From the IMG/VR virus record IMGVR_UViG_3300001765_000186, positions 1-59,884 of that record: a stretch of 59,884 nucleotides of DNA. One strand, given 5' to 3'. The position numbers were made by a program, and so were the translations under genes. This document shows positions 549 to 46,892 of this stretch, one piece after another. The stretch's first letter is position 1. Each line of letters opens with the position of its first letter. The notes beneath the pieces are model-generated. The model made no database searches, was not told the DNA's origin, and saw only the letters and a program-made list of their open reading frames with translations. Origin of the DNA: a virus. Lineage: Duplodnaviria > Caudoviricetes.

Positions 549-752
549 TTATGCGGCCCTCTCGGCTGCTTGGGGGGCGGGTTTCTTGCGAAGTGGCTTG
601 GGCTGCGTGTACTTCATTTCAAGCACCTTCGCCCAAGGTTTCGGGAGGCCGCGTTTGCGCCAATTGCTCACCACGTTTTGTCTAACGTCAAGAGCATTTG
701 CGAGCTTTCCGACACTGCCTTCGGAATCAATTGCGTTTTCGAGAATGTTCAT
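549..752 (-). CDS. cro: Cro-like HTH repressor (probably leaderless)
   Basis: GSVGKLANALDVRQNVVSNWRKRG HTH; divergent from cI. Confidence 0.8.
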   Translation of the reverse strand: MNILENAIDSEGSVGKLANALDVRQNVVSNWRKRGLPKPWAKVLEMKYTQPKPLRKKPAPQAAERAA

Positions 753-759
753 GAACAAC

Positions 760-813
760 ACTGTATCACTTAAGTGTTATTTATTCAACACCAAAGTGCT
801 TCACTGCTGTGAT
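760..813. promoter_or_regulatory. OR-like operator region with pR-like promoter
   Basis: CAC-N4-GTG sites at 765-778, 787-800, 800-813; minus-strand TTGAAT-17-TACAGT ends 7 nt before the cro ATG. Confidence 0.75.
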
Positions 814-825
814 TTACTCAGCGGT

Positions 826-1551
826 ATGGAAGAATCGATCGGAGACCGCCTGAAGAAACTTCGGAAAGCGGAAAAACTAACGCAAGCCGCACTTGCTGCA
901 CAGGTCGGGCTAAGTCAAAGCGCAATTGGAAATATTGAAGCTGGCACAAGGGGGTATGGCGCTAGTGTTGTACTTATCGCAAAGGCTCTTAAAACCTCCC
1001 CCGAATTCCTCCAAGTGGTCGGGAGGTTAACGAGACAGCCATCAGAATCAAACCAGCCTGCGGATATCCCGTTTTCTGGTCAAGTGGCTGGCGAACATAG
1101 GCCAATACCCATAGAACTTGAAAACAACCCCGAATACCCAGCGATTCGTCGAGTGGCCATCAAGGCTCAGGCTGGCGTGTCTGGTTTTTCAGTTGAGTAC
1201 AGCACCGAGGACGACGGACCACCTATCGTGTTTCGCGCCGACTGGTACAAGGCTAAGGGCTATAAGCCAGAGAAGATGCTGGCGTTGCGGGTCAAGGGGG
1301 AAAGCATGATCCCCAGCATGTACGAGGGCGACTTGATCGTCATCAACACGCTGTCCACGGAACCCAAGCAGGGCATCCCTTTCCTCGTTTCGTATGAGGG
1401 AGAAATATGCGTGAAGCGCTTGGTGCGCGATGATGGTCTTTGGTGGCTCACCAGCGACAACCCGGACCAGAGACGCTACCCGCGCACCAAGTGCAACGGT
1501 GGAACCGATATCATTGGGGAAGTCGTGTACCGACAGACAGAGCGGGTCTGA
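826..1551 (+). CDS. cI: CI-like repressor (XRE HTH plus S24 peptidase)
   Basis: LTQAALAAQVGLSQSAIGNIEAG HTH; VKGESMIP catalytic Ser and VKRL Lys; ATG at 826 preferred over the ORF-track start. Confidence 0.92.
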   Translation: MEESIGDRLKKLRKAEKLTQAALAAQVGLSQSAIGNIEAGTRGYGASVVLIAKALKTSPEFLQVVGRLTRQPSESNQPADIPFSGQVAGEHRPIPIELENNPEYPAIRRVAIKAQAGVSGFSVEYSTEDDGPPIVFRADWYKAKGYKPEKMLALRVKGESMIPSMYEGDLIVINTLSTEPKQGIPFLVSYEGEICVKRLVRDDGLWWLTSDNPDQRRYPRTKCNGGTDIIGEVVYRQTERV

Positions 1552-1566
1552 TTATCAGAACTCCAT

Positions 1567-2289
1567 ATGAAACGAACATTCATTTCTGCAATCACGCTTT
1601 TTATTGGCAATGCATTTGCTCAAGCCATAAGCAGAACAGGAAATGTGATTGAAGACGACAGCGGCGGGCTTGGTGGCAGTAGCGCAGGAGTCGGAATTGT
1701 GTATTCGGCGTTCGTAGTCGGAGCAATCGCAGTCTGGCTTTTTGCGGGTTACAGAAGCAGGCAGCAAAACAAGACATCGCTTCCTGTCACCACACCTAGC
1801 CCCAAAGCAAATTGGAATTGGCGACTCATTGCTTCGTGCTTTGTTGCATTTTGGGCCTGGAAACTGTTCTTTATCTGGAGCAATGACACACCAAAACCGC
1901 CTGTGTACGTTTCTGTGGATCAACCAAGTCCAGCAGTTCAATTTTTAGAACTAGATGTCATAAAGCCACCAGAACCGCCACCGCAAGGTCAAACTCAACC
2001 AGCCCAGCAGTACCAGCCATCAACACCACCCCCACCTACGCAGGCAGAAAAGGACGCCGCCCTAAAACAACAACAAGCCAACCGCCAAGCGGCAGCAGAC
2101 CTCGACGAGCGAGCAGCCCGCGCCGTTGCAGCTTACCCTTATCTTGATACTCCCGCTGGCGCAGACACCCTGCAAAAAATCATCGACTACCGCGACGAAC
2201 AAATTAGAGGCGGCACATACCCAGCCCTTGCGCTTACGCGGGCAGTCAACAAATATGCACCGGGGAACGACCCGCGCGGTCTACGGTGA
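1567..2289 (+). CDS. Membrane protein with Pro/Gln linker and C-terminal scaffold-like domain
   Basis: Signal-like N-terminus, two further hydrophobic segments, PQ-rich linker, C-terminus aligns with 45990..46892 product. Confidence 0.8.
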   Translation: MKRTFISAITLFIGNAFAQAISRTGNVIEDDSGGLGGSSAGVGIVYSAFVVGAIAVWLFAGYRSRQQNKTSLPVTTPSPKANWNWRLIASCFVAFWAWKLFFIWSNDTPKPPVYVSVDQPSPAVQFLELDVIKPPEPPPQGQTQPAQQYQPSTPPPPTQAEKDAALKQQQANRQAAADLDERAARAVAAYPYLDTPAGADTLQKIIDYRDEQIRGGTYPALALTRAVNKYAPGNDPRGLR

Positions 2290-2567
2290 TTCTCGTTGCC
2301 CGCGCTCTTTTATTGATAGCGTCTATATCAATATCCACCGGGGCTACAGCCAAAATAGAGCGAAAGCACTCGGTGCGTCATGCGTTTGTTAGGCAGCAGG
2401 CGTGCCCTTCAACAGAGCGGCATCGACTGCCCTGCCCTGGCTGGCAGATTGACCACGTGGTCCCGCTCAAATGCAAAGGGCCGGACAACACGGACAACTT
2501 GCAATGGCTGACCATTGAGGATCACAAGGCGAAAACCGGCCGCGAGGCAAAACTATGCAGGAAGTGA
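2286..2567 (+). CDS. Small HNH endonuclease-like protein with signal peptide
   Basis: Hydrophobic N-terminus ending ATA; IDHVVPL..GPD..DNLQWL...HKAKT motif; GTGA overlap. Confidence 0.8.
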   Translation: MILVARALLLIASISISTGATAKIERKHSVRHAFVRQQACPSTERHRLPCPGWQIDHVVPLKCKGPDNTDNLQWLTIEDHKAKTGREAKLCRK

Positions 2568-2571
2568 ATCT

Positions 2572-2907
2572 ATGACCGCTGACGAACACGAAATACTGAG
2601 TCTAAAAATGCGCCTACTCGCGCAAAAAACCCTATTGGATTGGCTTGTCGATATGCAACGGATTCGTTATGGCTCTTTACCATCACCTGAGCAACCTCAG
2701 ACGCTGACGCAATATGAGAAAAAGCTATCACTTGTGCGTCAAGACTACTCGACCATGACGCTGCCGAATTTGCATCCGGCTGAGTCTGATATGCAGACGG
2801 CGTTGTTTCAGGAATCATTTGATGGACTTTCAAAAGAGATGGTTTCAACAATTAGCAAAGGGCTTTCAGACGAAGAACTGATACGGCTTAGCAAGCTTAA
2901 AAAGTAG
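2572..2907 (+). CDS. Hypothetical protein, last gene of the cI-downstream block
   Basis: ATG 4 nt after upstream stop; followed by terminator. Confidence 0.65.
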   Translation: MTADEHEILSLKMRLLAQKTLLDWLVDMQRIRYGSLPSPEQPQTLTQYEKKLSLVRQDYSTMTLPNLHPAESDMQTALFQESFDGLSKEMVSTISKGLSDEELIRLSKLKK

Positions 2908-2925
2908 CCCACTCGAACCCCACAC

Positions 2926-2949
2926 AAACCGCCCGCGAGGCGGTTTTTT
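2926..2949 (+). terminator. Rho-independent terminator
   Basis: AAACCGCC-CGCGA-GGCGGTTTTTT. Confidence 0.85.
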
Positions 2950-3002
2950 GTTGCCTGAAAATTAATGACTCAATAGATATTAGAGCACAAGACAAAATCA
3001 AC

Positions 3003-15564: not shown

Positions 15565-15678
15565 TCAATCCCGCGTGAAGACCCACACCAAGCCAATCAA
15601 AATAATTATTCCGATTGGCCCGGTTGCTAACCCTGCACCCAGTAGCCCGATTGCAACGCTGACGTTGCCAAGGTTCAC
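15565..15678 (-). CDS. 37-aa hydrophobic peptide
   Basis: GTG start overlaps the TGA of the giant gene; TM-like GIIILIGLVWVF. Confidence 0.45.
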   Translation of the reverse strand: MNLGNVSVAIGLLGAGLATGPIGIIILIGLVWVFTRD

Positions 15679-18600
15679 CGGGCTTCCAGTTCTTGACGCA
15701 CAGCCGCGCGAATCTCTGCCGGGGCAGTCTTCGCAATACGCTGTTCTTTGGTCATGTTCATTTGCTTCACGCGGCTCAAGACTTGAGAGAATTTGATGCT
15801 GATGGGGGACTCGGGGTTGGTCGCATTCCATTTTGCCAGATCCTCCCGCGCAGCCTTCACTTTTTCAACGTCCTTTTCAAACAATCCCTTTGCCCACTCG
15901 TCGGCAATCTCGCTCTCGCGCATCTTGTTCAGACCAATCATTCGCACGGCCTCTTGTCCTGCGTCCTGCACGCGCTTTACATCATTGGGCTGGAACCCGA
16001 TGGCCTTAGCGAGTACGTCTGAGCCGTCCACGTCAATGACCTTTTTCCCAGACTGGTCCCGATACATACCGGTGGTGTACATATCGTAGGCTTTGACGAG
16101 GTTCCGCGCCGCAACCGGCGAAGCGGTCATGATGGCACCATCCACTCCAAAAACATGCCCTCCTATTGCTTTTCCAGCAGCTTCAAACCCGCGCTTTGCC
16201 AAGTCACCCACGGGGCCAAGCACTTCCGTCACGTCCCTGGTGTGGTCGGTCTTCTTGGTGAACAGGCCCGTGCCTGGGATCAGGTTGCCCAGTCCCATGC
16301 GTCCGCTCACATCGATAGGCACACCGGGCAAGCCAGAAATGCCGCTCTCCATAAACCGTGCCCCGCCCTCGCCAAACAGTTCCACGAAAAACGCCTTGCG
16401 CTTCGCTGCACTGTCAAAGTTGTAGCCCATGGACTGCAACACACCGCTGATGATGTCGTCCAAATCCTCTGCGCCAGGGAAGCCACCGGCACCGGCCATC
16501 AAGAACAACACACCCAGCGCCAGCGCAGCGGCCTTCTTACCCTCGGGTCCGTTCTTCGCCATGCGCGAGAGCATTTCCACGTAGCTCACCGAAAACTGTT
16601 TGAAGGTGAACAGTGTTGCGCCGATAGCGCCCCGCGCCCACTTGGGTTTATTGCCCTTGTTGTAGATACCCTGAGTCTCGCTGATTGCCTTGCGTGCGAA
16701 CCCGTCGGGGTCGGCCATGCCTTCGGCTACTGCGGTGCGGAATGCTGCAATAAACGTGACCCTGCGGTTGAACTGCTCGGCCACGCCGAACAGCTTGCCC
16801 CATGCCAGACCCAAGCGGGCAACCCCGTTTTGTGCCGTGGCCAGCGCATTGCCCGCCGTGGTGCCGTCGCCAGAGCGCAAAGCGCCCTTACCTTGGGATT
16901 GCTGCATCAACTGGTGCACCTCTTGCGGGCTCACGGTGCCATCTTCCTCTGCACGCTTGATAGCTGCATCCAGCTTGGCATCGCCCGTGCGGGCTTTCAG
17001 AGCATCCTGCATGGCCGCCGTCATCTGCTTGGCCGCCTTGATGCCGCCGCCGTACTGCGACAGCCAAGGGAATGTCATGGTTATGGGCTGTGTCAAGTTG
17101 ACCATGGCCGATGCAACGCTGCCGCCAATGTACTGGGCGAACATCAAACCACGTACCGCCTGGGCTTCTTCCATGGGGTTCTGGATGTAGTCAACCAGTT
17201 GCACGGCTGCATCCTTCAACTCGCCGTCGCCGTTCTTGGTGCCGTCGGGGTTCTGGCCGACCACGCTTGCGGCTTCGGACATTTCACCCATGTGCAGGTT
17301 CTTGGACGACTGGCGGGCGTTGGAGTAGACGAACCCGGCCAGCACCCGGCCCGCGTCTTCGCTGAATCCAGCAATGCCCTTGCGGGTCATCAAGCGTTTC
17401 ATGCTGGAACGGTTGTTCTTCGCCAGCTTGATGTATGTCTGGAAAGCCTTGGCCGCCGCGTCGTCGCCCTTGGCCTCCAACCCCAGCATGTCGCCAAACA
17501 GTTCCAGCGTTTCAGGGCTCACGCCAGCGAACAGTTTGTATTCCTCCTGGGACACGGTGTCACGCTTCACGGTCGCACCTGGGTGCAACGCCGTCATATC
17601 CCGCGCCATCTTCGCCGCGTCCATGGTGGACTCAAACATGCCGAAGTAGACCCGTTCGCCCTCGGCGTCCAGCACGTCTACCGTGTGTTGCCCAAAGCGG
17701 GACAGCGGAGCATAGCCACGGTCGATCAAGTCAAGCGCACGGGTGCCCTTGTCGATGATGGTGTTGGCCGTGTCGGTCAGCACGTTGGTGCGTGCGGAGT
17801 CGCCGTCATCCGTCAGAGACAACAGGTAGTCGCGCAGGGTTTCAGCCGCCTCCATGGCGGTCTTGCTGCTCTGCACCACGTCGCGGATGGGTGCCGCGTC
17901 TTTGCCCGCGTAGCGCAGCATGTCGGTGATAGCCAAGTTGGTAAGGCTCTTGTTGGTGGCCGCGCGAAACTCCTTGTACAGCGGGATCTGCTTTTCGTTC
18001 AGCCCGAACATGGACTTCAACTCGGCATCCTTCCACACCACGCCAGGGCGCAGCATTTCCCGCTCGTACTTGCTTTCAATCAGGGCGTTGTACTGGTCAA
18101 GCTGCATCCCGCGCCACATGGTCATCACCTGATTGGAAACGAGGTTCTTGCGAATCAGGATCTGCGCCTTGTCGGCGGTCGGGATCTTCGCGGCCTCGGC
18201 CTCCAGTACTTCCATCTTTACCGGCTTGCCGGATGTATCCCGGCCCCACAGCAAGGTGCCTTCAAACACCGGGCGGCTCAGTGCCTTGGCATCTTCTGGG
18301 CTCATGGCAGCGCGTGTGATGTCCTTCCAGCTTTCCAGCTTCGGCAAGATGGTCGGCGCAAGGTCTGCCGCCTCGGTGGCAAAGTAGCTCACGTCGTTGA
18401 TGAAGTTCTGCACGCCATCAAACACCCGCTTGAAGGCCGTGGACCGCTGGGCAAGGTTGTATTGCGTGCCCACGGTCTTGTGCCACCAGTTCAGTTTGCC
18501 GGGTACAGAGCCAATCAGGTCGTTGACCTTGTAGCCTGCGGGTAGCGCCACGTCGCGCACGCTGTTGGTTGCGCTGGTCAGGGTGTCGCCAACGGAGCGG

Positions 18601-21600
18601 CTGAACATGGTTTCAGCATCGTCTGCCCTGCTCATAGCTGGCAATCCACCGCCACCACCGCCAGGGCCGCCACGCTCCACCCACGCACGCGCGGGCAGGA
18701 TGTAGTTCTGGATCAGTTCATTGTCCGACAGGCGCATGTTGTTGAAACCCGGCACGTTCTGGCGCAGCCAAGTGCGTACAGCCGCAATGGCACGCTGCAC
18801 GAATCCAAGCTCGGGCTTTGTCTGGGCTAGTTCTGCAAGCACTTCCTCTGCTGCGGTGAACCGGTCCAGTTGGCTACCCATCTTCAAACCGTACTGCGTG
18901 ATCTTCGCGTCCACTTCTGCTTTGCGCATCATGGCCACGCCCCGCAAGATAGGGCGCAGTGCCTTACCAAAGGTGCCGCGTAGACCGTAGTGGCCCAGCG
19001 ACTCATGGAACAACACTCGCGCGATGTCGTTGGGCGTGCCCAGCTTGGACGACATCAAGTACACGGTGCCCTTGTAGTAGAAACCCTCCGGCGTGCCGGA
19101 TGCCCCGCCGCTTCGCTGGCGCTGGTCTTCTGCCCTGACTTTCTCAGGGATCACCGGGTCGTTCATGTCGAAAGCGATAACCACCTCTGGCGGGTTTTCC
19201 CAATGCGATGCGATGCCGCGTGCCAAACGCTCCACCGATTCATTGGCCTGGGACTGTGCGCCACGGCTGAACGTGGGGCGGGAGAAAACCACGTCGGTTG
19301 TATTTGCCGTGGTGTCTGGGATAGCTCCCATCGCACCTTCAAGGGTTTCCCCGTCGGCGGTCGCGGTCACACCAGCACTAGATAGGTTCCTCAAAACCTC
19401 TTGGTGCTTCTTGCGCAGTTCCACCAGCTTTGGCTGGTCCGGCCAGTCACCAGATACAGGGGCTGCATCCAGTTCGGCCTTTTCCCTCTTGGCGTTTTCC
19501 AGTTGACGTTTTTCATATTCGTGCTGCTGGCGGGCGCTCACGGCCAAGTTTTCAGCCATAACCACCACCACTGGGACGGTGCGCTCTATCCCCGCCTCAT
19601 CTACAGCATAAAGGCTGCGAGCATTTGAAATAGTCTGCCCCATATAGGTCAGCACTACGTCAAGCACTTTTTCAAGTTTTGCGCTCTGCCCTTCGACTGA
19701 TACGCTAAATGGCCCCAGCTTGCCAATCTCCTTGACTTGCTCATCGGCAATGGATTCGGCAACTGCCTGCCGAATGGCCGTAGCAATTTGCGTCCGGCGA
19801 TTGAATGCTTCTCCACCAAACGTCCAGGCTATCGGCTCCCGGTCGCCTCGAAGGTTGGAGAATGCTTCGGTCAGTTTGTCGCGGGAAGTGAACACCTCGC
19901 CGTTCATGTTCACCGACAACGGCACAGGGCGGGCGGCCCACGGGTTGTAGTCGGCGGCCTTCTTGTCCTGCTCGGGCTCGGCTGCTACCTGGGCTTCCGT
20001 CAGTTGGCGGCCTCCATACTTGCCGTCGGCTTGGCGCTGCATGTAGACCTTGTTGTCGATCATGGCCAGGAGCACTGCCCCGGCTTCCTTTGCGTCGGTG
20101 TAGTCCTTGCCGTCGATAGTGGCCTTGAAGCCCTCGCCAATGGCGGCCAGTTCAGTGCGGTACTGGTCGGATGCCTCGGCCATGCCCTTGGACGATTCAA
20201 TTTTTGCCGGTAGGCTTTCCAGCTTCTGCGACACGCTATTTTTGCGGCTTTGCAGGTCGGACTTCTGGGCATCGAATGCCCGCTTGCGCTGCTCCAGCTT
20301 CTTGATTTCGCCCTTGATCTGGATTTCGCGCAACAGGTCGATATTGCCGGTGGCCGCCGCTTGCATTTCGCCTGCGGACAGTTCCAAGTCTTCAAATGCG
20401 TTTTCGATGTCGCGGCCAATCTTGCGGGTGCGCAACTGGTTAATCATCTTGAGTTTGGTTTCCTGAACCTGCCACATGCGCATGTCCAGTGTGTCCTGGG
20501 TCACATAGGCCAGGATCTCTACTTCAAAGCCTGGGAGCCCGCCCGCGCGGCCTTCAACCGGGGCCAGGGTGTTGCCCTGCCGGATAACGCGCCCTTCGCG
20601 CTGCTCCACGTCTGACGGCTTCCACGGCACGTCCAGATGGTGCAAGGCGACAAGCCGCTCCTGCACGTTGGTCCCAGCGCCCAGCTTCTGGGTGGAGCCC
20701 AACAAAATACGGATCTGGCCCGAATTTACCTTGCGGAACAGACCGGCCTTTTGCTCGTCCGTGTTGTAGTCGTGGATGAAGGCGATTTCGTTCTCGGGGA
20801 TACCCTTCTCAATCAGTGCGGCTTTCAGGTCGTCGTACACAGAGAATCCACGCTCGGCGGCCTGCATGGCTCCCAGCCAGTCGCGGCCCTTGGCTTCCAA
20901 TTCCTCCTGCGCGTCCTCGGCGTCGTCGATCTTCGCCTGGGCGGCCTCGTCACCCAGCGCAGCACGGCCCAACAGTTCATCGCCATACCCGGCTTCAATG
21001 CGGTCCTTGAGTACTTGGTACTCTGCCAATTCCTTCTTGGCAGTCTTCAAAGGCGTGCCAAGGTCAGAGAACACCAGTTGCGTGCCCTTCACATCGTTGT
21101 ACTGCTTGTAGCGGGCGAACAGTTCTTGCGATGCACGGTCGATGCGTCCACCGGCTTCCCGAACGGTGATAGTCGGGTCCACCAGCCGCACATCCATGGC
21201 GGCCTTGCGGGCGTCGGACATGATGACAAGAATATTGTCTTCACCCTTCTGCGGCGGGCCTTTGCGCTTCTCCAGCGCCAGGGCACGATTGGCGATGTCG
21301 GCCATGTACGCTTCCTGGGCGGCTGATTTGCGCAGCGACATAGGCGTGCGCTTGCCGCCTTTCAGCTTGGGCAATGGGAACTCGCGGCCCTGGTTTTCTT
21401 CCGAGAATGCCTTTTTGACATCCTCCATGGTCACGGTGTCGGAAACTTGGTCAAACACCTTCAATAGCTCGGGCGTGTTGACGAAGTTGCTCATGCGGTT
21501 TTGCGCCTTGAAGCCGTCGGCACTGGCCTTCTGCATCCACACCTGTTCAACCGATGCGTAGGTGTTGGCCCATGCGTCGAACGACTCAAAGCCCATTTCC

Positions 21601-24600
21601 TCCATCTGCGTTGGCATGAGGTAGCGCATCATGTGGTACATCTCGGCCAGCGAGTTGGATACCGGAGTGCCGGTCGCAAAAACCACCCCTTGCCCGCGCC
21701 CGTTGCGCTCATACAGTTGGTTGGCCTTCACGTACATATCATAGGCACGCTGGCTGCCCTTGCTATCACCCAAGCCCGCAATGTTCTGCATCTTGGTGCT
21801 GAACATCAAATTCTTGAACATATGGGCTTCATCAACAAACAGTTGGTCTACACCCAGTTCCCCGAAGTCGAGTAGCGAGTCCATGGGCTTGTCGCGCAGT
21901 GCCTTGATGCGGTTCTCCAGGCGCTCCTTGATGCCCTCCAATTGCTTGATGGTGCGCTTCTTCTGTTGCTTCTCGCCGTCGCCGTTGTCCACTTCCCGAA
22001 TGGTCTTGACGATGTTTTCCACCTGCTTGGTGTTGAATGCGGCCTCAAAGTCAGGCGCTGGCCGGATGAACCCATAAGACGAGTGCGCGATGATGACGGC
22101 ATCCCAATCGCCCGTGGCGATCTTCGCCAGGAACTTGCGCCGGTTGGACTTTTCAAAATCCTTCTTGGTCGCGGTCAGGATGTTGGCACCGGGGTACAGC
22201 TTGTAGAAGTCAGCCGCCCACTGCTTCACCAAGTGGTTCGGCACCGCGATCATGGGCTTCTTGGCCAGACCGGTGCGGCGCAGTTCCATCGCAGATGCGA
22301 TGACGGTATAGGTCTTGCCGGAGCCCACTACGTGGTCAAGCAGGGCCGTGCGGTCCTGCACGATACGCGCGATGGCGTTGCGCTGGTGGCGTCGGAACTC
22401 CACAATAGCGTTGGGCACCTTGCCAGGAAACGTCATCCATGCGCCGTCATACTGGCGGGTCACATAGTTGTTGTTGGTGTCGTTGTACGCGCGGCCCAGC
22501 AGTTCGGCCCGGTCGGCGTCGGAGAATAGCCAGTCTTGGAACTTGTCGCGCATTTCCTGCGCCTTGGCGTTGGCATTCTCCGTGCCGGTCACGTCGGTGT
22601 GCGTCTTCCCCTCGGCGTCTTTGTACGTCACCTTGACCGGCTTGTTGTTCAGCAGCGCAGAGAGAATGTCCGAGCCCCGATAGTCCGGCGTGCCCCATGT
22701 GTTGGTGTTGGCGGTGTCGCTCCCGGCGTGGATGTAGGACGAGTAGCCGCCCGAAGCCTTCACATACTTGATGCTGGCGTCCGTGCCCTCGCCCAACAGG
22801 CTCTTGGCAAAGTCTTGGTAGACCGACTCTGGCACCCATGGGGAACCGATACGCGCGTTGATTTCATGCGCTCCAACGTCCTCGGGCTGCACAGTCTCCA
22901 GGGCCTTGATGTTGTTGAACATGCCCGCCTGCTTGGCTTGCACCAGCTTGGCGCGGACATTGCCCGACAAGTAGGCATCGCGCAGCACGTATTCACCGGT
23001 CGCGGGGTCGTTGAACAGCAGCGGCGAGTCACCGCCAGACAGTTCGTGCAGCGCCTCGTCGGCATCCTTGCCCAGCAGTTCACCGATGTATTTGGTGTCC
23101 AGCCTGCCACGCTCGGCCATGGACACATTCAGCGCATCGGCGGGGCTCTCCACCTTGGCAACTTGCTGGCGGGCGTCGATCACCCGGCGGGTGAATATCG
23201 GCCCCTTGTTGGCCGTGGATGGCACCATCTTGATGCCCATGGACTTGGCAGCGGCCAGACCGATTGCCGGGGTGTAGCCATACTCCAGCGAAGCCAGTAG
23301 CGGGAAGTCTGGATCATCACCAAACACCCGAATGGTGCCGGGGTCGTTGATGCGCCCATGGTCCTTGGTGAATGCGTCGTACTGGTCGTTCAGCGTCTTG
23401 CGCAACGCTTCCATGTTGGCATCATTGGCCAACTCGGCGGCCAGCAGGCTACGCACGGTGGAGCGCATACCGGCCAGGGACTTGATGCGGTTAAACCCGT
23501 TGTCACCCAGCTTGGTTTCTTCGGTCCACTGGCTCTGTGCGGTCACTTCCTGCGCCCGCGCCTCGCCCGCGATGTCCTTGATACGCTGGAACAGCTTGCC
23601 GTCTTCCTCAAAATACCCGCCCTCTTGCACCTGGGGGTTTTGCAGCGTCTTGATAAGCGCGTCCTGCAAGCTGGCCGTGTTGGTGATGGCGCGGTCCACG
23701 TAGACATTCGCGGGCAGCTTGGATACCGCCTCCTTGAGCAATGCCGCTGTGTCTTGTCCAGGCTTTTGCACCAGTGCGGTGGATTCACCCCGGTACATGG
23801 TCCCATATGCGCCAAACTTGCCCAGCATCATTTCTGGGTGGTCGATGAAATACTGGTTCAGCGGGACAGTGCGCCCTTCTGCGTCAGTGATTTGGCCAAC
23901 GGCCAGCCACTCCTTGGCATTCGCACGCGCGGCCTTGCCGCCCCACTCCGATTCGGGCAGCTTCTGCAAGAAAATCAGGTCGGTGGTTACTTCGGTGTTC
24001 GCGTTCTTGCTGAATGCGTTGTTCGGCAACCGGATAGCGCCAAGTAGTTTTGTCTTTTCAGCGATGTACTTCCGCGCGGTGTCGGTTTGAGCATCCATGA
24101 AAGAATTGGTGATGACCTGGGCCAGAATGCCGCCCTCGCGCAGCATGTCCACTTCCTTGGCGAAAAAATAGTTGTGCAGGGACAGGCCAGACAGGTGCTT
24201 GCGCCCCGAACGGTCTACCTGTGGATCTGACGCGAACGGGGGATTGCCGACCGCCACGTCGTAGAAGTCATCATTGCCGACGAACTCGGTGAAGTCTGCC
24301 TCTTGGATGTTCTGCTGTGGGTACAGGTTGCGGGCAATCTTCGCGGAGAACGGTTCCCGCTCAATGGCGGTGAACCGGCTTGCGCTGCGCATGGTCGCGG
24401 GCATCAAGCCAATGAAGTTACCTACACCGGCTCCACCCTCCAGGGCGCGTCCACCGGCAAACCCGAAGCGCTCCAGGGCGGCATAGATGCCGTCCTGAAC
24501 CACTTGGCGGGACGTGAAGTGGGCGTAGCGCGTGGATACCCGTGCGTCGGCATAGTCACGCTCCGACATCAAGCCCTTCAACTCGGTGTATTCCTTGGAC

Positions 24601-27600
24601 CAGTCGGCGTTATCTTCGTCAAACGCCTGGGCCAAACCGCCCCAGCCAACGTACTTAGCCAATACGGCCTGCTCGGTCGGCGTGGCCATGCGGCCATCGG
24701 TGTCCAGTTGGGTCAACAGGCGAATCGCCTCTATGTTGCCCTTGAACTTGGCCTTTTGCCCGCCTTCGCCCAGTGCGAAGTCGTCTTCAATGGTGAAGTC
24801 TGCAAACGCTGGCGCTGGTATCGGCGCAGCGTTGGGTGCCGGGTTGGCTGGTATCAGTCCTCCCGTTCCCCCGGCAGTATCAACGAACCCAAGCCCCGGT
24901 TGTATTCCTGCATCGCCTTGAACCCCGGACTGTCCGGCGCTTCCTCGCTTGCTTCGCTTTCCTCGGGCGGGAACAGGTACTGCTCCCGTGTCGCTTCCCA
25001 CGCCTCCTGATACTTGAACCCCTGCGCTATCAGTAGATCCATTTCCTTCTGGGTCGCCTCTGCCGCTTCCGTCAGGGCTTTCTCCAGTTGGTGCGACTTC
25101 ACCAGTTCCCGAAACTTGCTCGGTTGAAACTCCCTCCAGTGGGTTCGGGCTTGTGCTATCCAGTTTGAGTGTTGCATTTTGGGTATCCTTGGCCGGAGTA
25201 TCGGCTTCATCTTCTGATTTTTCAAGTTCCTCAAGGGAATCGAAGCCCGCGACCGTCTTTTTAGAAGTCACTGGCTTGTCCTTGTGGCGACCGGCCACAG
25301 AGATATAGGCACCCTGCAAGGTGTCGAACGGGATGGCGTCAGCGGTTTCTTGGTCGATGCCATTGGCGATGAAGTCGCGCACGTAGGCCACGGCCTGCTT
25401 AAACGACACAGACCCTAATTCAATTGCACCGTCAAATAGTTCTATGACGATGGGCAAAAGCTGTTGTTCTTCCTCCTGGGTCCAGTTCATGCGCGTGTTC
25501 TTGCCTGCAAGGTGGGCCAGCTTGCCCAAGGCGTTGAACATCTTGGCTTTGGCGGCCTTCGCTTCGTCGGATAGGGCGGCTTTGGCGTCAGGCTTTGCTA
25601 CAGTTTCCGTAGCTACGGGCGCATTATCGGCGGGGGCTAGAGGTTGTTTTGTCTCTGCCTTCACTTCCTCAATGCTGGGCACGTCATCACGCTTGCCGTC
25701 GATAAAGTCTTGAATGGCCGGTGAACTGGACTTTGCCCCGGAATACGTCGGGTTTGGCTTTGCCTCGTAGCTCTGCATTTCTGCGTCAAGCTCGTCGTTC
25801 TGGCCTTCCAGTTGCGCAATCTCCCGCTTGATCTGGTTGATCTGCGTTTCCAGCCGGTCATCACCAACCATGCCGTTTGCATCCTGCTTGGCTTGCAACT
25901 CCATCAGCATGTTGCGGGCTTTGGTGACTGGGCTTAGTTCAGCCGCATTCGCAGTTTGCATATTGCGAACGGGTGCAGCATCCGGCCCCATCACCTTGAC
26001 CAGCTTGTCCTGCACGCGCGGTGCCAGATTCTCCCAAGACTTGAACTGCAACTTGTCGGCGGTAACCTGGGGAAACCCTGCCTTGAGGATCAGGACCATC
26101 CGGTCAACATTGCGGGTCCGCGTCCACTCTATTTCGGCTACGCCTTCTGGGGTTTCGGCTGGTTGTTGCGCTTTTGACGGCTTGGCTTTGGTGGTTTGAG
26201 TGCCATTGTCTTGTCCTTGAGTAGTTGCTACAGGTTTGATAGCTGCTTGCGCAGTATCTGCGGGGGCTACAGGCGCTTCTTGCTTGGATACGATGTCCCA
26301 GCGCGTTGCACTTGTCTTCACGGCCTTGTGGGTGTCCTTCAAACCATTCTTGGTGATGAACTCCCCGGCCTTCATGGGGTTGCCGAAATAGGCCGAGCCC
26401 TTGGCAATACGGTCTATGGCCTTGGCACGCTTCTGCGGGATGCCAAACAGGTGATCCATGTCGGCCTTGACGCTACCAAGGCTGGCGGGGCCGGGTGCTG
26501 GTTTCCCTGCGCTCCCTGCGCTCCCTGCGGGATTTTTCTCTACCCCATTGGCTTCCACCTGGGCGGTTCTGGCTCCGGGTGCGGGTTCAGCGGCATCTGT
26601 ATTTGCTCCCACAGCTTGCGCCTGCGCGTCTGGCGTGGCTTCGGTTCGCGCTGTGGGCTCGTTGGCTGCTGGCGTTGGGTTTTCGACACGGAGCACGTCC
26701 TTTGCGGTGAAGCCTGGGCCTGCACTGGCAGTCACCTGCGTGCCAAGCGATTTTGGCTGTGGGTTTCCTTGGGCTACTGGCGCTGCATTGCCTCCACCGG
26801 CCTGTTCACCAGATTGACCCACGTAATCAGCAACTGCTCCGCTCGGGTTGTCTCCCTCGGAGAGTCGATCAAGTTGTCCAAATTCCACGCCTCCAACGGC
26901 GTTATCGCCAACAGGTCCAGCGGGTTCTGTGCTTCCGGGTTCAGTTCCAGTAGTTGGGCTGACATTGAATGCGTCCTTGAGTCGGGCCACAAAGCCATCA
27001 AACACCGGGGCAATGGTCCAGCCAGTGCCCTCCAACTTTGCGCGGCGTGCTGCTGCAAACCGTGTTGCAAATGGTGCGCCCATGCCGTTGAGGATGTCGC
27101 CATCCTGGGTGCCTTCGTACTTGCGGCCACCGTCGGCCACCGCTTGATTGCTGAACAGAACCGCCCGCTTGTCTTCCTCGGACATCTGCGCCTCGGCCAA
27201 TGGGCCTTTGGTGATTGCCTGGGTGGCTGTGTCCTGCTGCTGCGCTTCTGCCTCCTGCTGGGCCATGTGCGCCTCGTAGACGGCTCGGTCTTGGTCAACG
27301 ACCTGGGTCTGCTGGATTTCGTCATGGATGCCGCCGTCCACCGCACCAGCGGCCACGCGAGACAACGGGCCAGCTTCGGGCGTGATGCCCATGGCCTGGG
27401 ATGGCTTGATGGGGTCAAGGGCACCGGTAGATGCCAAGATTTCATCGTCATGGCTTGCCACGGCACGCTGGGCGGCCAACTGCGCATCGCGCTCTTGCTG
27501 CTGCTGCGCCTGCTGGGCGGTCAGTGCCGCACGGCCATCAGGCGGCGTAGTCTGCGCGACGTTCGGCGCACCCACTTCCTCAGATTGCACAGTTGCAAGC

Positions 27601-28538
27601 TGGGTGCTGGGGTCCAATGCCAAATCAGGCCCAGGAGGGACGGTTGCCGGTGGAAGTGGCGTATTGCGCGACAACGCACCCATGCCCGCACCCATAGCGC
27701 CGCCAGACAGCAAGCCCATGGCTGCTGCTGCATCCAGATCCTGCGACCAGTCCTTGCCAAGCGCCACGTTATGTAGCGCCTGCTCGGACAGTGACTGTGG
27801 CAGTTCTTCCAACACACCTTCGGACAATGCGCCCTCGGCGGCACGGCGAATTATTCCCTTGTCTGCACCACGCGCACCGGCTTCCAGCGTGCCGCCCGCA
27901 ATCGCGGTATCGGCGTCGGCAATGCCCAGCTTGTTGGATACTTTGCCGCCCAGTGCTCCAAATACGCCCCCGACCACGCCAGACAAGCCAGCAAGCCCCG
28001 CCTGAGTACCCGTGATGTACCCGTCTTCGGTCTCCTGCCGGATGCCCTCGGCGGCAGATCCAGCGCCCACAATACCTTCGCCAGCCGCACCAGCCGCGAC
28101 CGCGCCCACCTTGGGTGCAGCGGCCATCAGCGCACGCGCACCAACACCGACCGCGCCAATCATGGGCACAGACTCGGCAATGGCGTTGCTTATCAAACTG
28201 GGGTTTGTCAGGGCCACGCCCGCCTTGTCGATGAAGCCCTCGGCGTCGTTGAACTGCTGTTGCTTGCCCTTGTAGTCGTCAGACTGGAAGCCGCTCAGTA
28301 CGCTCTTGGCGTCTTTGAACCGAACTCCAGAGTCTTCAACAAACTTGCCCGCGCGGCCACCAGATACCAAGTCGGCAAGGCCGACCACGGTTTCAGGAAC
28401 GGCTACAACGCCTTTGGCAACCGATAGGCCAAGGTCGCCCAGCTTGCGGGCTGCACTCGCGGGCTTTTCCAGGGTTGCAGTAGAGGGGTCAAATGCTTCT
28501 TCGGCCTTGGCCGTGCTTGCGTCAAATTCAAATGCCAT
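15675..28538 (-). CDS. Giant DarB-like polyvalent virion protein (MTase, SNF2-type helicase, zincin-like, PLxRFG regions)
   Basis: EGGAGVGNF and GNPPF; HVVGSGKT, VDEAH, QREGR; HESLGHYGLR; YAPLSRFG; 4287 aa. Confidence 0.9.
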   Translation of the reverse strand: MAFEFDASTAKAEEAFDPSTATLEKPASAARKLGDLGLSVAKGVVAVPETVVGLADLVSGGRAGKFVEDSGVRFKDAKSVLSGFQSDDYKGKQQQFNDAEGFIDKAGVALTNPSLISNAIAESVPMIGAVGVGARALMAAAPKVGAVAAGAAGEGIVGAGSAAEGIRQETEDGYITGTQAGLAGLSGVVGGVFGALGGKVSNKLGIADADTAIAGGTLEAGARGADKGIIRRAAEGALSEGVLEELPQSLSEQALHNVALGKDWSQDLDAAAAMGLLSGGAMGAGMGALSRNTPLPPATVPPGPDLALDPSTQLATVQSEEVGAPNVAQTTPPDGRAALTAQQAQQQQERDAQLAAQRAVASHDDEILASTGALDPIKPSQAMGITPEAGPLSRVAAGAVDGGIHDEIQQTQVVDQDRAVYEAHMAQQEAEAQQQDTATQAITKGPLAEAQMSEEDKRAVLFSNQAVADGGRKYEGTQDGDILNGMGAPFATRFAAARRAKLEGTGWTIAPVFDGFVARLKDAFNVSPTTGTEPGSTEPAGPVGDNAVGGVEFGQLDRLSEGDNPSGAVADYVGQSGEQAGGGNAAPVAQGNPQPKSLGTQVTASAGPGFTAKDVLRVENPTPAANEPTARTEATPDAQAQAVGANTDAAEPAPGARTAQVEANGVEKNPAGSAGSAGKPAPGPASLGSVKADMDHLFGIPQKRAKAIDRIAKGSAYFGNPMKAGEFITKNGLKDTHKAVKTSATRWDIVSKQEAPVAPADTAQAAIKPVATTQGQDNGTQTTKAKPSKAQQPAETPEGVAEIEWTRTRNVDRMVLILKAGFPQVTADKLQFKSWENLAPRVQDKLVKVMGPDAAPVRNMQTANAAELSPVTKARNMLMELQAKQDANGMVGDDRLETQINQIKREIAQLEGQNDELDAEMQSYEAKPNPTYSGAKSSSPAIQDFIDGKRDDVPSIEEVKAETKQPLAPADNAPVATETVAKPDAKAALSDEAKAAKAKMFNALGKLAHLAGKNTRMNWTQEEEQQLLPIVIELFDGAIELGSVSFKQAVAYVRDFIANGIDQETADAIPFDTLQGAYISVAGRHKDKPVTSKKTVAGFDSLEELEKSEDEADTPAKDTQNATLKLDSTSPNPLEGVSTEQVSGTGEVAPTGESPDGSGRGDPEGNGSTDSAGVQVSGGVGSDTGAVPVPARGKRSKRGSAGQSGVQGDAGIQPGLGFVDTAGGTGGLIPANPAPNAAPIPAPAFADFTIEDDFALGEGGQKAKFKGNIEAIRLLTQLDTDGRMATPTEQAVLAKYVGWGGLAQAFDEDNADWSKEYTELKGLMSERDYADARVSTRYAHFTSRQVVQDGIYAALERFGFAGGRALEGGAGVGNFIGLMPATMRSASRFTAIEREPFSAKIARNLYPQQNIQEADFTEFVGNDDFYDVAVGNPPFASDPQVDRSGRKHLSGLSLHNYFFAKEVDMLREGGILAQVITNSFMDAQTDTARKYIAEKTKLLGAIRLPNNAFSKNANTEVTTDLIFLQKLPESEWGGKAARANAKEWLAVGQITDAEGRTVPLNQYFIDHPEMMLGKFGAYGTMYRGESTALVQKPGQDTAALLKEAVSKLPANVYVDRAITNTASLQDALIKTLQNPQVQEGGYFEEDGKLFQRIKDIAGEARAQEVTAQSQWTEETKLGDNGFNRIKSLAGMRSTVRSLLAAELANDANMEALRKTLNDQYDAFTKDHGRINDPGTIRVFGDDPDFPLLASLEYGYTPAIGLAAAKSMGIKMVPSTANKGPIFTRRVIDARQQVAKVESPADALNVSMAERGRLDTKYIGELLGKDADEALHELSGGDSPLLFNDPATGEYVLRDAYLSGNVRAKLVQAKQAGMFNNIKALETVQPEDVGAHEINARIGSPWVPESVYQDFAKSLLGEGTDASIKYVKASGGYSSYIHAGSDTANTNTWGTPDYRGSDILSALLNNKPVKVTYKDAEGKTHTDVTGTENANAKAQEMRDKFQDWLFSDADRAELLGRAYNDTNNNYVTRQYDGAWMTFPGKVPNAIVEFRRHQRNAIARIVQDRTALLDHVVGSGKTYTVIASAMELRRTGLAKKPMIAVPNHLVKQWAADFYKLYPGANILTATKKDFEKSNRRKFLAKIATGDWDAVIIAHSSYGFIRPAPDFEAAFNTKQVENIVKTIREVDNGDGEKQQKKRTIKQLEGIKERLENRIKALRDKPMDSLLDFGELGVDQLFVDEAHMFKNLMFSTKMQNIAGLGDSKGSQRAYDMYVKANQLYERNGRGQGVVFATGTPVSNSLAEMYHMMRYLMPTQMEEMGFESFDAWANTYASVEQVWMQKASADGFKAQNRMSNFVNTPELLKVFDQVSDTVTMEDVKKAFSEENQGREFPLPKLKGGKRTPMSLRKSAAQEAYMADIANRALALEKRKGPPQKGEDNILVIMSDARKAAMDVRLVDPTITVREAGGRIDRASQELFARYKQYNDVKGTQLVFSDLGTPLKTAKKELAEYQVLKDRIEAGYGDELLGRAALGDEAAQAKIDDAEDAQEELEAKGRDWLGAMQAAERGFSVYDDLKAALIEKGIPENEIAFIHDYNTDEQKAGLFRKVNSGQIRILLGSTQKLGAGTNVQERLVALHHLDVPWKPSDVEQREGRVIRQGNTLAPVEGRAGGLPGFEVEILAYVTQDTLDMRMWQVQETKLKMINQLRTRKIGRDIENAFEDLELSAGEMQAAATGNIDLLREIQIKGEIKKLEQRKRAFDAQKSDLQSRKNSVSQKLESLPAKIESSKGMAEASDQYRTELAAIGEGFKATIDGKDYTDAKEAGAVLLAMIDNKVYMQRQADGKYGGRQLTEAQVAAEPEQDKKAADYNPWAARPVPLSVNMNGEVFTSRDKLTEAFSNLRGDREPIAWTFGGEAFNRRTQIATAIRQAVAESIADEQVKEIGKLGPFSVSVEGQSAKLEKVLDVVLTYMGQTISNARSLYAVDEAGIERTVPVVVVMAENLAVSARQQHEYEKRQLENAKREKAELDAAPVSGDWPDQPKLVELRKKHQEVLRNLSSAGVTATADGETLEGAMGAIPDTTANTTDVVFSRPTFSRGAQSQANESVERLARGIASHWENPPEVVIAFDMNDPVIPEKVRAEDQRQRSGGASGTPEGFYYKGTVYLMSSKLGTPNDIARVLFHESLGHYGLRGTFGKALRPILRGVAMMRKAEVDAKITQYGLKMGSQLDRFTAAEEVLAELAQTKPELGFVQRAIAAVRTWLRQNVPGFNNMRLSDNELIQNYILPARAWVERGGPGGGGGGLPAMSRADDAETMFSRSVGDTLTSATNSVRDVALPAGYKVNDLIGSVPGKLNWWHKTVGTQYNLAQRSTAFKRVFDGVQNFINDVSYFATEAADLAPTILPKLESWKDITRAAMSPEDAKALSRPVFEGTLLWGRDTSGKPVKMEVLEAEAAKIPTADKAQILIRKNLVSNQVMTMWRGMQLDQYNALIESKYEREMLRPGVVWKDAELKSMFGLNEKQIPLYKEFRAATNKSLTNLAITDMLRYAGKDAAPIRDVVQSSKTAMEAAETLRDYLLSLTDDGDSARTNVLTDTANTIIDKGTRALDLIDRGYAPLSRFGQHTVDVLDAEGERVYFGMFESTMDAAKMARDMTALHPGATVKRDTVSQEEYKLFAGVSPETLELFGDMLGLEAKGDDAAAKAFQTYIKLAKNNRSSMKRLMTRKGIAGFSEDAGRVLAGFVYSNARQSSKNLHMGEMSEAASVVGQNPDGTKNGDGELKDAAVQLVDYIQNPMEEAQAVRGLMFAQYIGGSVASAMVNLTQPITMTFPWLSQYGGGIKAAKQMTAAMQDALKARTGDAKLDAAIKRAEEDGTVSPQEVHQLMQQSQGKGALRSGDGTTAGNALATAQNGVARLGLAWGKLFGVAEQFNRRVTFIAAFRTAVAEGMADPDGFARKAISETQGIYNKGNKPKWARGAIGATLFTFKQFSVSYVEMLSRMAKNGPEGKKAAALALGVLFLMAGAGGFPGAEDLDDIISGVLQSMGYNFDSAAKRKAFFVELFGEGGARFMESGISGLPGVPIDVSGRMGLGNLIPGTGLFTKKTDHTRDVTEVLGPVGDLAKRGFEAAGKAIGGHVFGVDGAIMTASPVAARNLVKAYDMYTTGMYRDQSGKKVIDVDGSDVLAKAIGFQPNDVKRVQDAGQEAVRMIGLNKMRESEIADEWAKGLFEKDVEKVKAAREDLAKWNATNPESPISIKFSQVLSRVKQMNMTKEQRIAKTAPAEIRAAVRQELEAR
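24854..25177 (-). CDS. Nested 107-aa gene in the +1 frame of the giant gene
   Basis: AAGGA-N8-ATG; helical globular sequence where the host frame is a low-complexity linker. Confidence 0.7.
   Translation of the reverse strand: MQHSNWIAQARTHWREFQPSKFRELVKSHQLEKALTEAAEATQKEMDLLIAQGFKYQEAWEATREQYLFPPEESEASEEAPDSPGFKAMQEYNRGLGSLILPGERED
26774..26965 (-). CDS. Possible second nested 63-aa gene (+1 frame)
   Basis: AAGGA-N8-ATG; Leu-rich helical product over a G/P/S-rich host linker. Confidence 0.45.
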   Translation of the reverse strand: MSAQLLELNPEAQNPLDLLAITPLEAWNLDNLIDSPRETTRAEQLLITWVNLVNRPVEAMQRQ

Positions 28539-45989: not shown

Positions 45990-46892
45990 TTAGTCCCCCC
46001 GCAACCGCTTCTTGTCAGCGGCAGAGAGTGAACGGAACTGGTCTTCATCCAGTGCCTCAACATTGACCCGCGCACCTGTAATGCGAGTGCCAATGCCAGC
46101 TTGTAGGGAAGGTGGTTGCAGGCTTGAATCCTGCGCTCCACGCCTCAATGCGTCCTGGGTGCGAGTATCTAGCGCAGCGTTGCCGCGTGTCGAGTCCCTA
46201 GTGGGGGGTACTGCGTCATCCGGCATGAAACGGGGGGCAATGGCGGCCACCGCACGGCGCAATGCCAGATGCATAGGCACACCCTTGGCAATGTCCACGT
46301 CACGCGCGGCCACGATCAGGCCCAATGCGTATTCGCCTTCTTCGGTTTCAAGGTACGGGTAGTCCGCTACCGCCTGGGTTGACTCTGCCTCCAAACTATT
46401 TGCGATTGCGTTGTACTCGTTGTCTGCAATCAACTCCTGCTTGGTCGAGGCGCGGATATTGGCGTTGATTTCGCGGCGAATGGCCAGTGCAGCCTCGGTG
46501 TTGCCCTCCATCATGGCTTCGATGTACTGCGCTTCCTTGGCGTCCTCGTCAAACTCGGGCAGCGCGGGTGCTGCGGGCTTTGACTGGGTGCGCAGGCGCT
46601 CAATCTCGGCGTTGGCGGCATCCAGTGCGGACAACGCGGCCTTGCGGCCCTCGTTCACTTCATCAAACCGGGCCTTGGGGATGCGTGGTGCAGGTGCGTC
46701 GCGGCCTTCTTCGGTGCCGCCTTCGTTGCCCTTGTCGCCCGCTTCGTCGTCGGTCGGAGTGAAGTCGTCGCCACGGTCCAATGCTGTGCCGGTGGTATCG
46801 CCGCCGTCGTCAGTTGTGGAGCCGGTTGCGGCACCGTCCAGGCTGATTACTTCGCCGGAATCGTCGTTGTCGTTTTCTGTTGGGAATGGCAT
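45990..46892 (-). CDS. Putative scaffolding protein
   Basis: Acidic N-terminus, IPKARFDEVN, C-terminal LSAADKKRLRGD; between portal and capsid. Confidence 0.75.
   Translation of the reverse strand: MPFPTENDNDDSGEVISLDGAATGSTTDDGGDTTGTALDRGDDFTPTDDEAGDKGNEGGTEEGRDAPAPRIPKARFDEVNEGRKAALSALDAANAEIERLRTQSKPAAPALPEFDEDAKEAQYIEAMMEGNTEAALAIRREINANIRASTKQELIADNEYNAIANSLEAESTQAVADYPYLETEEGEYALGLIVAARDVDIAKGVPMHLALRRAVAAIAPRFMPDDAVPPTRDSTRGNAALDTRTQDALRRGAQDSSLQPPSLQAGIGTRITGARVNVEALDEDQFRSLSAADKKRLRGD
46196..46208 (-). promoter_or_regulatory. Late-promoter-like motif copy inside the scaffold gene, upstream of the capsid gene
   Basis: CCCCCCACTAGGG core; -10 spacing less clean. Confidence 0.5.

Follow-up and report, generated by a model that had tools for sequence, protein, structure and literature searches.

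Accessory genes located behind the repressor gene of prophages have long been known to supply exclusion and defence functions, and the mechanisms that operate in the periplasm are little understood. In phage lambda, rexA and rexB are co-transcribed with the cI repressor gene, and the unit is closed by a terminator. A comparable slot is found in the sequence studied here, a 59,884-bp IMG/VR virus record (IMGVR_UViG_3300001765_000186; Duplodnaviria, Caudoviricetes) with an estimated completeness of 96%, which was analysed over its full length and is referred to as the window. In this slot, a cI-type repressor gene is followed by three genes and a terminator-like hairpin, and the three genes appear to be exchangeable as a cassette. 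The first of them is the open reading frame (ORF) studied here, ORF240 (positions 1567-2289), which encodes a membrane protein with a C-terminal domain homologous to the conserved centre of the phage's own scaffold-like protein. ORF240 shows no homology to RexA or RexB and gave no PADLOC matches. Rex is active in the membrane and at its cytoplasmic face; by contrast, both accessory proteins considered here, ORF240 and a small HNH protein, are predicted to be periplasmic.

The sharing of a functional segment between the scaffold of a helper phage and a protein of a mobile element is known from CpmB of the Staphylococcus aureus pathogenicity islands (SaPIs) and from the alternative scaffolds of satellites. 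These proteins act in the cytoplasm, within procapsids, and share the capsid-binding C-terminus, whereas ORF240 shares the central scaffold domain, lacks the scaffold tail, and is predicted to present its domain outside the cytoplasm. TonB and TolA are likewise built from an N-terminal membrane anchor, a linker rich in Pro and a small domain at the C-terminus, but the C-terminal domain of ORF240 is all-helical and was not identified as a TonB or TolA C-terminal domain in any search made. The closest analogue for the action proposed below is SieA of phage P22, which, like ORF240, is a prophage inner-membrane protein encoded beside the immunity region. SieA is expressed from the prophage and blocks DNA delivery, and mutations that escape it are located in the ejection proteins gp16 and gp20, according to the SieA study (PMC10883804). 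The two proteins show no sequence relation that we could find, no domain related to a head protein is known in SieA, and ORF240, unlike SieA, is predicted to expose a linker-borne periplasmic domain and to be paired with a secreted HNH protein. According to a report on phage T4 (PMC6832632), RI is tethered to the membrane on the periplasmic side and is thought to respond to DNA or proteins of a secondarily adsorbing phage in the periplasm, and the periplasmic protein Sp counteracts incoming gp5. RI, Sp and also Imm resemble the proposal for ORF240 in that they sense or block in the periplasm, whereas they are unrelated in sequence, are lytic early genes, and contain no head-protein domain. Overall, ORF240 resembles a Sie-type or Rex-slot moron: its class, a prophage envelope protein encoded behind the repressor, is known, and its domain family is new to the libraries searched. 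No scaffold-related periplasmic module was described in the main texts of the literature searched, and none of the libraries searched (Pfam, PHROGs, NCBIfam and PADLOC) names the domain, in agreement with an earlier interpretation made from the letters alone (the sequence-only reading), which knew of no such system.

The scaffold-related domain of ORF240

The sequence-only reading had aligned 47 residues of ORF240 without gaps to a putative scaffold protein encoded elsewhere in the window and counted 23 identities. This match lies within the single ungapped segment that BLASTP reports between ORF240 and the 300-residue scaffold-like protein (residues 179-232 and 167-220, respectively), in which 24 of 54 positions are identical, with an E-value of 2e-7 for this single pairwise comparison. 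When residues 166-240 of ORF240 were compared with the whole record, only the query itself and the scaffold site at 46230-46406 (E 7.3e-8) were found. A profile-profile comparison of 6 relatives of ORF240 with 24 relatives of the scaffold-like protein gave a probability of 98.6% and an E-value of 1.2e-15 over 67 columns. In the alignment of the scaffold family, 18 invariant or near-invariant columns fall within residues 179-220, and most of these are, as read by eye, retained in ORF240 (P, L, G, L, I, R, G, A, L, A, V, A and P). The AlphaFold models of both proteins show the same pattern, in which a long helix is followed by a short turn helix and a hairpin of two helices, with a predicted local distance difference test score (pLDDT) for the shared domain of 90-95 in the scaffold-like protein, compared to 95-98 in ORF240. 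The resemblance between the two proteins is homology, not chance.

The hydrophobic segments and the Pro/Gln linker that the sequence-only reading had described in front of the domain are present both in the sequence and in the AlphaFold model, and the distance of 15 nucleotides (nt) to cI holds as well, with the cI stop codon at 1549-1551. The first of the hydrophobic helices is signal-peptide-like, with an AFA/QA site, and residues 63-86 contain a positively charged loop. The profile of the domain matches ORF240 with 80.4 bits over residues 177-238 of 240. Close relatives are rare, amounting to six clusters among 5.8 billion proteins, and in the closest of them the last 76 residues are 78-95% identical, while the N-termini are of three unrelated kinds. 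ORF240 gave 0 matches in PHROGs and PADLOC and only sub-threshold matches in Pfam and NCBIfam. One of these was TIGR02794 (TolA), with 16.1 bits against a cut-off of 59.45 and covering residues 94-186 only; this weak match stems only from the likeness in architecture, a transmembrane (TM) segment with a linker. A tblastn search against 50,697 phage records found no match, the best structural match among 48,161 Protein Data Bank (PDB) representatives had a Z-score of 5.7 (VIA-align), which is within the noise for helical proteins, and a search of BFVD returned nothing at E ≤ 0.001. Prediction of a homodimer from two copies of residues 168-240 (alignment A6) resulted in a score of 0.00, which counts neither for nor against self-association.

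The other copy of the domain lies in the head module of the phage (44.7-51.6 kb). Its gene immediately precedes the major capsid gene (44717-45820; PF13252, E 6.2e-39; phrog_334, E 4.3e-85) and lies downstream of a P22-like portal gene (47973-50078; E 3.9e-91), with two small genes in between. The latter (46941-47976, minus strand) encode proteins of 143 and 188 residues without an NCBIfam match. The position between the portal and capsid genes is repeated in Acidovorax phage AP1, for which nothing was found in the main texts searched, and contig L115 shows the order TerL, portal and scaffold-like protein. The AlphaFold model of the 300-residue protein consists entirely of helices, with a disordered acidic N-terminus. 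The Pfam model Phage_scaffold matched the protein weakly (17.1 bits, cut-off 35), and because of this weak match to a curated scaffold model we refer to it as scaffold-like; its identity as the scaffold is probable. It had no match in PHROGs, and Foldseek found nothing in the PDB at E ≤ 0.001. In the ESM Atlas, the matches above a TM-score of 0.8 were unnamed viral proteins of 152-346 residues, belonging to no named family, which we read as members of the scaffold-like family. This family comprises at least 225 clusters, and the shared domain is among its best-conserved blocks. A conserved N-terminal coiled-coil region and a conserved basic tail of 70-85 residues ending in KKRLRGD are further features of the family. 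ORF240 has neither the coiled-coil region nor this tail. It is encoded behind cI, outside the head module, contains three hydrophobic helices, and ends 3 residues past the shared domain.

Two branches of the domain family and the side of the membrane

A profile of 64 positions (A3) was built from the two window copies of the domain and 22 scaffold copies. Among 1.84 billion representative proteins, 466 matched this profile at E ≤ 0.001 and 158 at E ≤ 1e-10. The best 150 of the 466 hits, five earlier proteins and the scaffold-like protein of the window were used to analyse the branches of the family, and 130 complete segments with one motif each were retained. Half of these (65) belong to scaffold-like proteins, here called type I, which are about 300 residues long, with the domain in the centre and behind it a tail of 70-85 residues that is conserved. 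The other 65, called type II, have the domain near the C-terminus, followed by either 0-8 or about 36-40 residues. The type II signature G-x-YP-[SA]-[IL]-ALT-[RQ]-AVN is found in ORF240 as GTYPALALTRAVN.

The sequence-only reading had considered the ORF240 domain to be a copy of the phage's own scaffold domain. This does not hold, since the two domains in the window are 42% identical, while against the 60 other type II domains the median identity is 50% and the highest value 63%. Identity to the 65 type I domains reaches 53%, with a median of 39%. In a FastTree phylogeny of the 130 segments, which is indicative only because the alignment is short, a clade with a support of 0.93 contains 62 of the 65 type II and 1 of the 65 type I segments, and ORF240 lies within it. 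Based on its higher identity to type II domains and its position in this clade, the ORF240 domain is assigned to type II and does not appear to be a recent copy or domestication of the resident scaffold gene. On the same sequence comparisons, the two types are best described as old relatives within one family. The sequence-only reading had also stated that its idea would fail if the domain were a generic module found mostly outside phage scaffolds. This is largely what we observed, with 65 of the 130 usable domains located outside scaffold-like proteins.

Type II domains occur behind at least eight N-terminal architectures that are unrelated to one another. Among 20 type II proteins scanned against Pfam, we found T5orf172 in 6, DUF2628 in 5, DUF2569 in 4, DUF4328 in 2 (one of which also has DUF2628) and HNH in 2 (one with a zinc ribbon), and no family in 3. 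Further forms were recognised by reading the sequences: a signal peptide followed by a domain with six Cys, a lipoprotein, a 121-residue protein with a single TM segment, DnaJ combined with a TM segment, and a secreted protein with two domain copies and Sel1 repeats. Tandem copies of the domain are present in P0216 and P0250. The T5orf172 heads match PDC-S57, a single-gene defence candidate of PADLOC (E 7.7e-20 for a Hydrogenophaga protein, L098 6786-8219, and 4.7e-16 for P0185), and the HNH head of P0191 matches ZorE, also in PADLOC (E 2e-8). A search for PDC-S57 in the main texts of the literature found nothing. The hosts of type II proteins are prophages and genomic islands of Comamonadaceae-type bacteria. 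We conclude that the domain family is promiscuous, undescribed, and new to the libraries searched. Aside from this, the PDC-S57 matches suggest that T5orf172 proteins anchored in the membrane and bearing a periplasmic tail constitute a defence-like class. Another observation is that the secreted six-Cys domain (P0004, P0005, P0167, P0181, P0210 and P0233) occurs both with and without a type II domain; it shows a weak match to the four-cysteine family VF_A0006 of NCBIfam (31.7 bits, cut-off 65).

The different architectures bear on the side of the membrane at which the domain is located. Following the positive-inside rule, the C-terminus of ORF240 would be periplasmic whether the first hydrophobic segment is cleaved or retained. 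The type II forms that consist of only a signal peptide and a Cys-rich part (6 Cys) in front of the domain, and the lipoprotein form, must be exported. A single hydrophobic segment precedes the linker and the domain in six proteins whose heads were verified with Pfam, as T5orf172 (P0184, P0185, P0193 and P0201) or as HNH/zinc ribbon (P0191 and P0225). A Cys-x-Trp...Cys tail ends 27 of 71 type II representatives. Taken together, the type II domain is predicted to be extracytoplasmic in every architecture that can be resolved. The sequence-only reading had proposed a membrane-tethered decoy or sensor for the scaffold, capsid or portal proteins of related phages, with the caveat that a signal peptide and two TM segments would place the domain in the periplasm. 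It is the caveat that proved decisive, since the forms found in relatives support it, and a periplasmic type II domain makes a decoy for head assembly in the cytoplasm unlikely.

The lysogeny operon and the secreted HNH protein

The features of the window that are relevant here are listed in Table 1. The cI protein matches Peptidase_S24 (E 1.9e-17) and HTH_3 (E 1.6e-9) in Pfam and the transcriptional repressor family phrog_4 (E 4.4e-39). The genes for cI, ORF240, the HNH protein and ORF111 have the same direction and are separated by 15, -4 and 4 nt, after which the terminator-like hairpin follows. ORF111 had no match in Pfam, PHROGs, PADLOC or NCBIfam. This operon position and the terminator point to expression of ORF240 together with cI in the lysogen. 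A 21.6-kb metagenome contig (run X2) matches the window through cI up to 1551 and again from 2936, in the terminator-like hairpin, with 1920 unlike nucleotides in between. Because this contig shares both flanks and not the interior, the three genes appear to be exchanged as a unit. In other contigs, the match begins at around 2095, the start of the domain, or at around 2328, the start of the mature HNH protein, and the sequence upstream is unlike. The GC content is approximately 0.50 across the membrane part of ORF240 and 0.58 across the domain. Judged by these comparisons, the region 1551-2936 is best described as a mosaic, exchangeable cassette.

Table 1. Coordinates of ORF240, its parts and related features in the window (HTH, helix-turn-helix)
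Feature	Position	Strand	Remarks
Cro-like HTH gene, divergent from cI	549-761	-	YdaS_toxin E 1.1e-5 and P22_Cro E 6e-5, both under cut-off
cI-type repressor, HTH and S24 peptidase, first gene of the operon	826-1551	+	translation from ATG at 826
ORF240, membrane protein	1567-2289	+	240 residues, ATG at 1567
ORF240, three hydrophobic helices	1567-1881	+	AlphaFold helices at residues 3-25, 40-67 and 79-105
ORF240, Pro/Gln-rich linker, residues ~106-158	1882-2040	+	pLDDT 49-73, no secondary structure, predicted disordered
ORF240, type II domain, residues ~159-240, core 176-238	2041-2286	+	long helix and helical hairpin, pLDDT 95-98
Small HNH protein, 93 residues	2286-2567	+	GTG at 2286 overlaps the ORF240 TGA at 2287-2289
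ORF111, last gene of the cassette, 111 residues	2572-2907	+	GC 0.44-0.45, compared to 0.58 for the window
Intrinsic-terminator-like hairpin	2926-2946	+	8-pair stem with 5 GC pairs, followed by TTTGTT
Scaffold-like protein (type I), 300 residues	45990-46892	-	domain at residues 163-226 (46215-46406)

The small protein encoded downstream of ORF240 matches PF01844 (E 2.9e-5, 24.6 bits, cut-off 21.4). In an alignment of 21 family members, D56, H57, N71, C40 and C50 do not vary, and at least 90% keep H80 and C91, by which the protein is assigned to the HNH (His-Me finger) nucleases. The hydrophobic N-terminus is followed by an A-x-A site, of which A22 is invariant and A20 conserved in at least 90% of these members, and it fits a cleaved signal peptide. 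The positive charges behind the hydrophobic segment had raised the alternative of an N-terminally anchored protein on the cytoplasmic side, which was dropped in favour of a cleaved signal peptide because of the conservation of A-x-A across the 21 members. The family comprises 56 clusters with proteins of 51-163 residues and is present in 176 IMG/VR viral contigs. The gene neighbourhood was counted in 80 loci (L117-L196) of these 176 contigs. In 73 of the 80, the HNH match is preceded by an ORF that ends no more than 120 nt before it; a hydrophobic segment is present in 46 of these 73 ORFs. Among 88 longer ORFs located further upstream, S24 was found in 22 and HTH_3 in 23. The succession of a repressor, a variable envelope protein and a secreted HNH protein is accordingly a common layout, with type II proteins as one occupant of the middle slot. 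No repressor-linked secreted HNH protein was described in the main texts of the literature searched, and a secreted HNH protein as a regular member of the lysogeny module seems undescribed.

A search for loci with the 6-member alignment A2 found nothing in the viral, genome and metagenome collections, and with the closer alignment A5 we obtained 5 genome, 2 viral and 7 metagenome loci. In a prophage of Hydrogenophaga defluvii, the gene order is a Cro-like gene, an S24 repressor gene, the gene for a 477-residue type II protein, a small HNH gene and recombination genes. The 477-residue protein is composed of T5orf172, a zinc ribbon, a TM segment and the type II domain, and the HNH gene 32 nt downstream is homologous to that of the window. 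The metagenome contig L109 contains an HTH-like ORF (read as such by eye, with no Pfam match), a type II protein with a signal peptide and a Cys-rich part, and an HNH gene whose start overlaps the stop codon of the latter; this HNH protein is 45% identical to that of the window (E 1e-24). By gene order, these two other elements repeat the window's grouping of a repressor, a type II protein and a small HNH protein, with different N-terminal modules. The provirus G005 of Curvibacter lanceolatus ATCC 14669 encodes both a type I scaffold and a 209-residue type II protein, again with a signal peptide and a Cys-rich part, and no HNH homologue was found in it with the window HNH as query. Two copies from metagenome-assembled genomes (MAGs) of Rhodoferax adjoin tRNA genes, one of them also a PriCT-2/AAA_25 primase gene, and one copy from a Betaproteobacteria MAG lies among unassigned genes. 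The seven contexts comprise three prophage regulatory regions (two behind a verified repressor), one site behind the HTH-like ORF, two tRNA-flanking sites and one unclear site. In the related record G004 (L142 3574-3945), the slot between repressor and HNH gene is occupied by a secreted Cys-rich protein that lacks the type II domain; its identity with the P0005 head is 44% (E 8e-34). The HNH relatives P0271 and P0281 and the type II proteins P0003 and P0006 come from contigs of equal size (6461 and 51754), which is suggestive only. As a separate observation, the type II gene of G005 lies between two divergent Arc-like ribbon-helix-helix genes and a Bro-N/ANT antirepressor gene, an arrangement (L088 471-2884) that is immI-like. 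The sieA gene of P22 is positioned beside immI.

Possible functions of ORF240

Based on the sequence data, the reading that we tentatively favour, at somewhat below even chance, is that ORF240 is a periplasm-facing protein that is expressed in the lysogen and interferes with the entry of other phages. ORF240 would sit in the inner membrane and present a compact helical domain of about 70 residues to the periplasm on a Pro/Gln-rich linker of about 55 residues. In a lysogen, this domain would bind something that reaches the periplasm from an incoming phage, most likely an ejection protein of the kind that is docked by scaffold proteins inside the procapsid. Such binding would derail the conduit for DNA delivery and result in superinfection exclusion, and the co-encoded periplasmic HNH protein may degrade DNA that becomes exposed. 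In the proteins in which a TM segment connects the domain to a cytoplasmic T5orf172 or HNH part, the module might position or trigger the nuclease at the site of entry. We favour interference with entry because of the operon position, because both proteins are predicted to be periplasmic, because the examined copies occur only in mobile elements, because nuclease heads fused to the domain match PDC-S57 and ZorE, and because of the P22 precedents. One of these precedents is SieA, described above. The other is the P22 procapsid, in which the inner end of the scaffold helix bundle has been proposed as the docking site for ejection proteins, according to a passage of PMC12005531; this would explain the use of a scaffold-related domain in the periplasm. 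The phage itself encodes a protein of 4287 residues (15675-28538, minus strand) that matches the DarB-like antirestriction family phrog_10089 (E 0, 1907 bits) and contains regions resembling methyltransferases and helicases. This protein probably resides inside the virion and leaves it together with the DNA, and if it is packaged, the phage has a large ejected cargo.

Several points weigh against interference with entry. Binding of ejection proteins by either branch of the domain is itself a proposal, and ORF240 has no match to the annotated exclusion and defence families in PHROGs and PADLOC or to SieA and Rex. None of the sequencing runs listed for the region 800-3000 of the window is recorded as RNA, and two that are labelled RNA-Seq are flagged as probably DNA. 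The topology was assigned by sequence rules, and the crude hydrophobicity count gave no assignment for the forms with multiple TM segments and missed weak signal peptides, including that of ORF240. The type II domain was found in none of the 80 HNH loci, so that the pairing with HNH may merely reflect a shared insertion slot. Only one of ten other type I phage records, G005, contains a type II copy, and the Hydrogenophaga genome has a single domain match and no type I scaffold copy, therefore there is no tight link between the two branches.

The last finding also bears on the decoy of the sequence-only reading. In this model, a copy of the scaffold domain that is tethered to the membrane would work on the cytoplasmic side, where it would co-assemble with the scaffold, capsid or portal of superinfecting relatives and poison or sense their head assembly. 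The true homology to the conserved core of the scaffold proteins, the placement of ORF240 in the lysogeny operon, and the co-occurrence of type I and type II in G005 are in line with such a decoy. Nevertheless, we consider it very improbable, given that the domain is predicted to be extracytoplasmic in all resolvable architectures, that it belongs to a separate clade and is less similar to its own scaffold than to type II domains, that ORF240 lacks the coiled-coil region and basic tail of the scaffold, and that the Hydrogenophaga prophage carries type II in a genome without type I. The absence of type I from that genome is in line with a general module for self-association or anchoring, by oligomerisation or by binding of peptidoglycan or outer-membrane proteins, which was borrowed independently by scaffold and envelope proteins. 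ORF240 would then be a lysogenic-conversion protein that does not recognise phage proteins, and its effects could be envelope remodelling, receptor masking or stress tolerance. The promiscuity of the domain, its tandem copies, its presence in scaffold proteins, which have to self-associate, and an architecture of TM segment, Pro-rich linker and C-terminal domain that recalls the periplasm-crossing TonB and TolA (a weak match) all agree with this explanation. On the other hand, no likeness to peptidoglycan-binding or outer-membrane-binding folds was found, in searches that are weak for helical folds, every examined context is a mobile element, and the fusions to nuclease heads with matches to defence candidates speak for conflict more than for housekeeping. 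We regard a general module as somewhat unlikely, yet as the strongest alternative.

The function of ORF240 could also be directed at its neighbour. As an anchor, activator or inhibitor of the periplasmic HNH protein, it would be part of a two-gene nuclease system against incoming phage, conjugative or transforming DNA, in which the variable first gene sets localisation or specificity. The overlap of start and stop codons in the window and L109, the short gap in Hydrogenophaga, the conserved signal peptide of the HNH family, the upstream ORFs, often hydrophobic, in most HNH loci with S24 and HTH_3 further upstream, and the fusions of HNH, TM segment and type II domain in P0191 and P0225 are what such a partnership would lead one to expect. 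It is nevertheless distinctly unlikely in our view, since the type II domain is absent from the counted HNH loci, the upstream genes are mutually unrelated, so that a hypervariable insertion slot fits equally well, the HNH part of the fusions is on the cytoplasmic side, and the type II protein of G005 occurs where the HNH query found no homologue. Finally, interference with entry can be extended to the whole branch, with the type II module as a periplasmic receptor for the proteins that podophages eject ahead of their DNA. This receptor would descend from the docking domain of scaffolds, or have a common origin with it, and be wired to several outputs: a bare anchor together with a secreted HNH protein, TM-fused cytoplasmic T5orf172 or HNH parts that would cut DNA where it enters, and a J-domain fusion. 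We consider this extension a long shot; if true, it would represent a new class of entry-sensing, trans-envelope anti-phage systems that mimic a head-assembly interface.

A role of ORF240 in conflict between phages is plausible. The domain family, with 466 representative clusters, links the core of head scaffolds with a shuffled extracytoplasmic module that is in some cases fused to nucleases. Even as a unit for oligomerisation or anchoring, the definition of the domain and the layout of repressor, envelope protein and HNH protein help annotation and the mining of defence islands. If the module recognises ejected phage proteins, an assembly interface would have been turned into a sensor of entry, and this would provide a handle on the little-studied step of DNA delivery in phages of freshwater and wastewater Betaproteobacteria.

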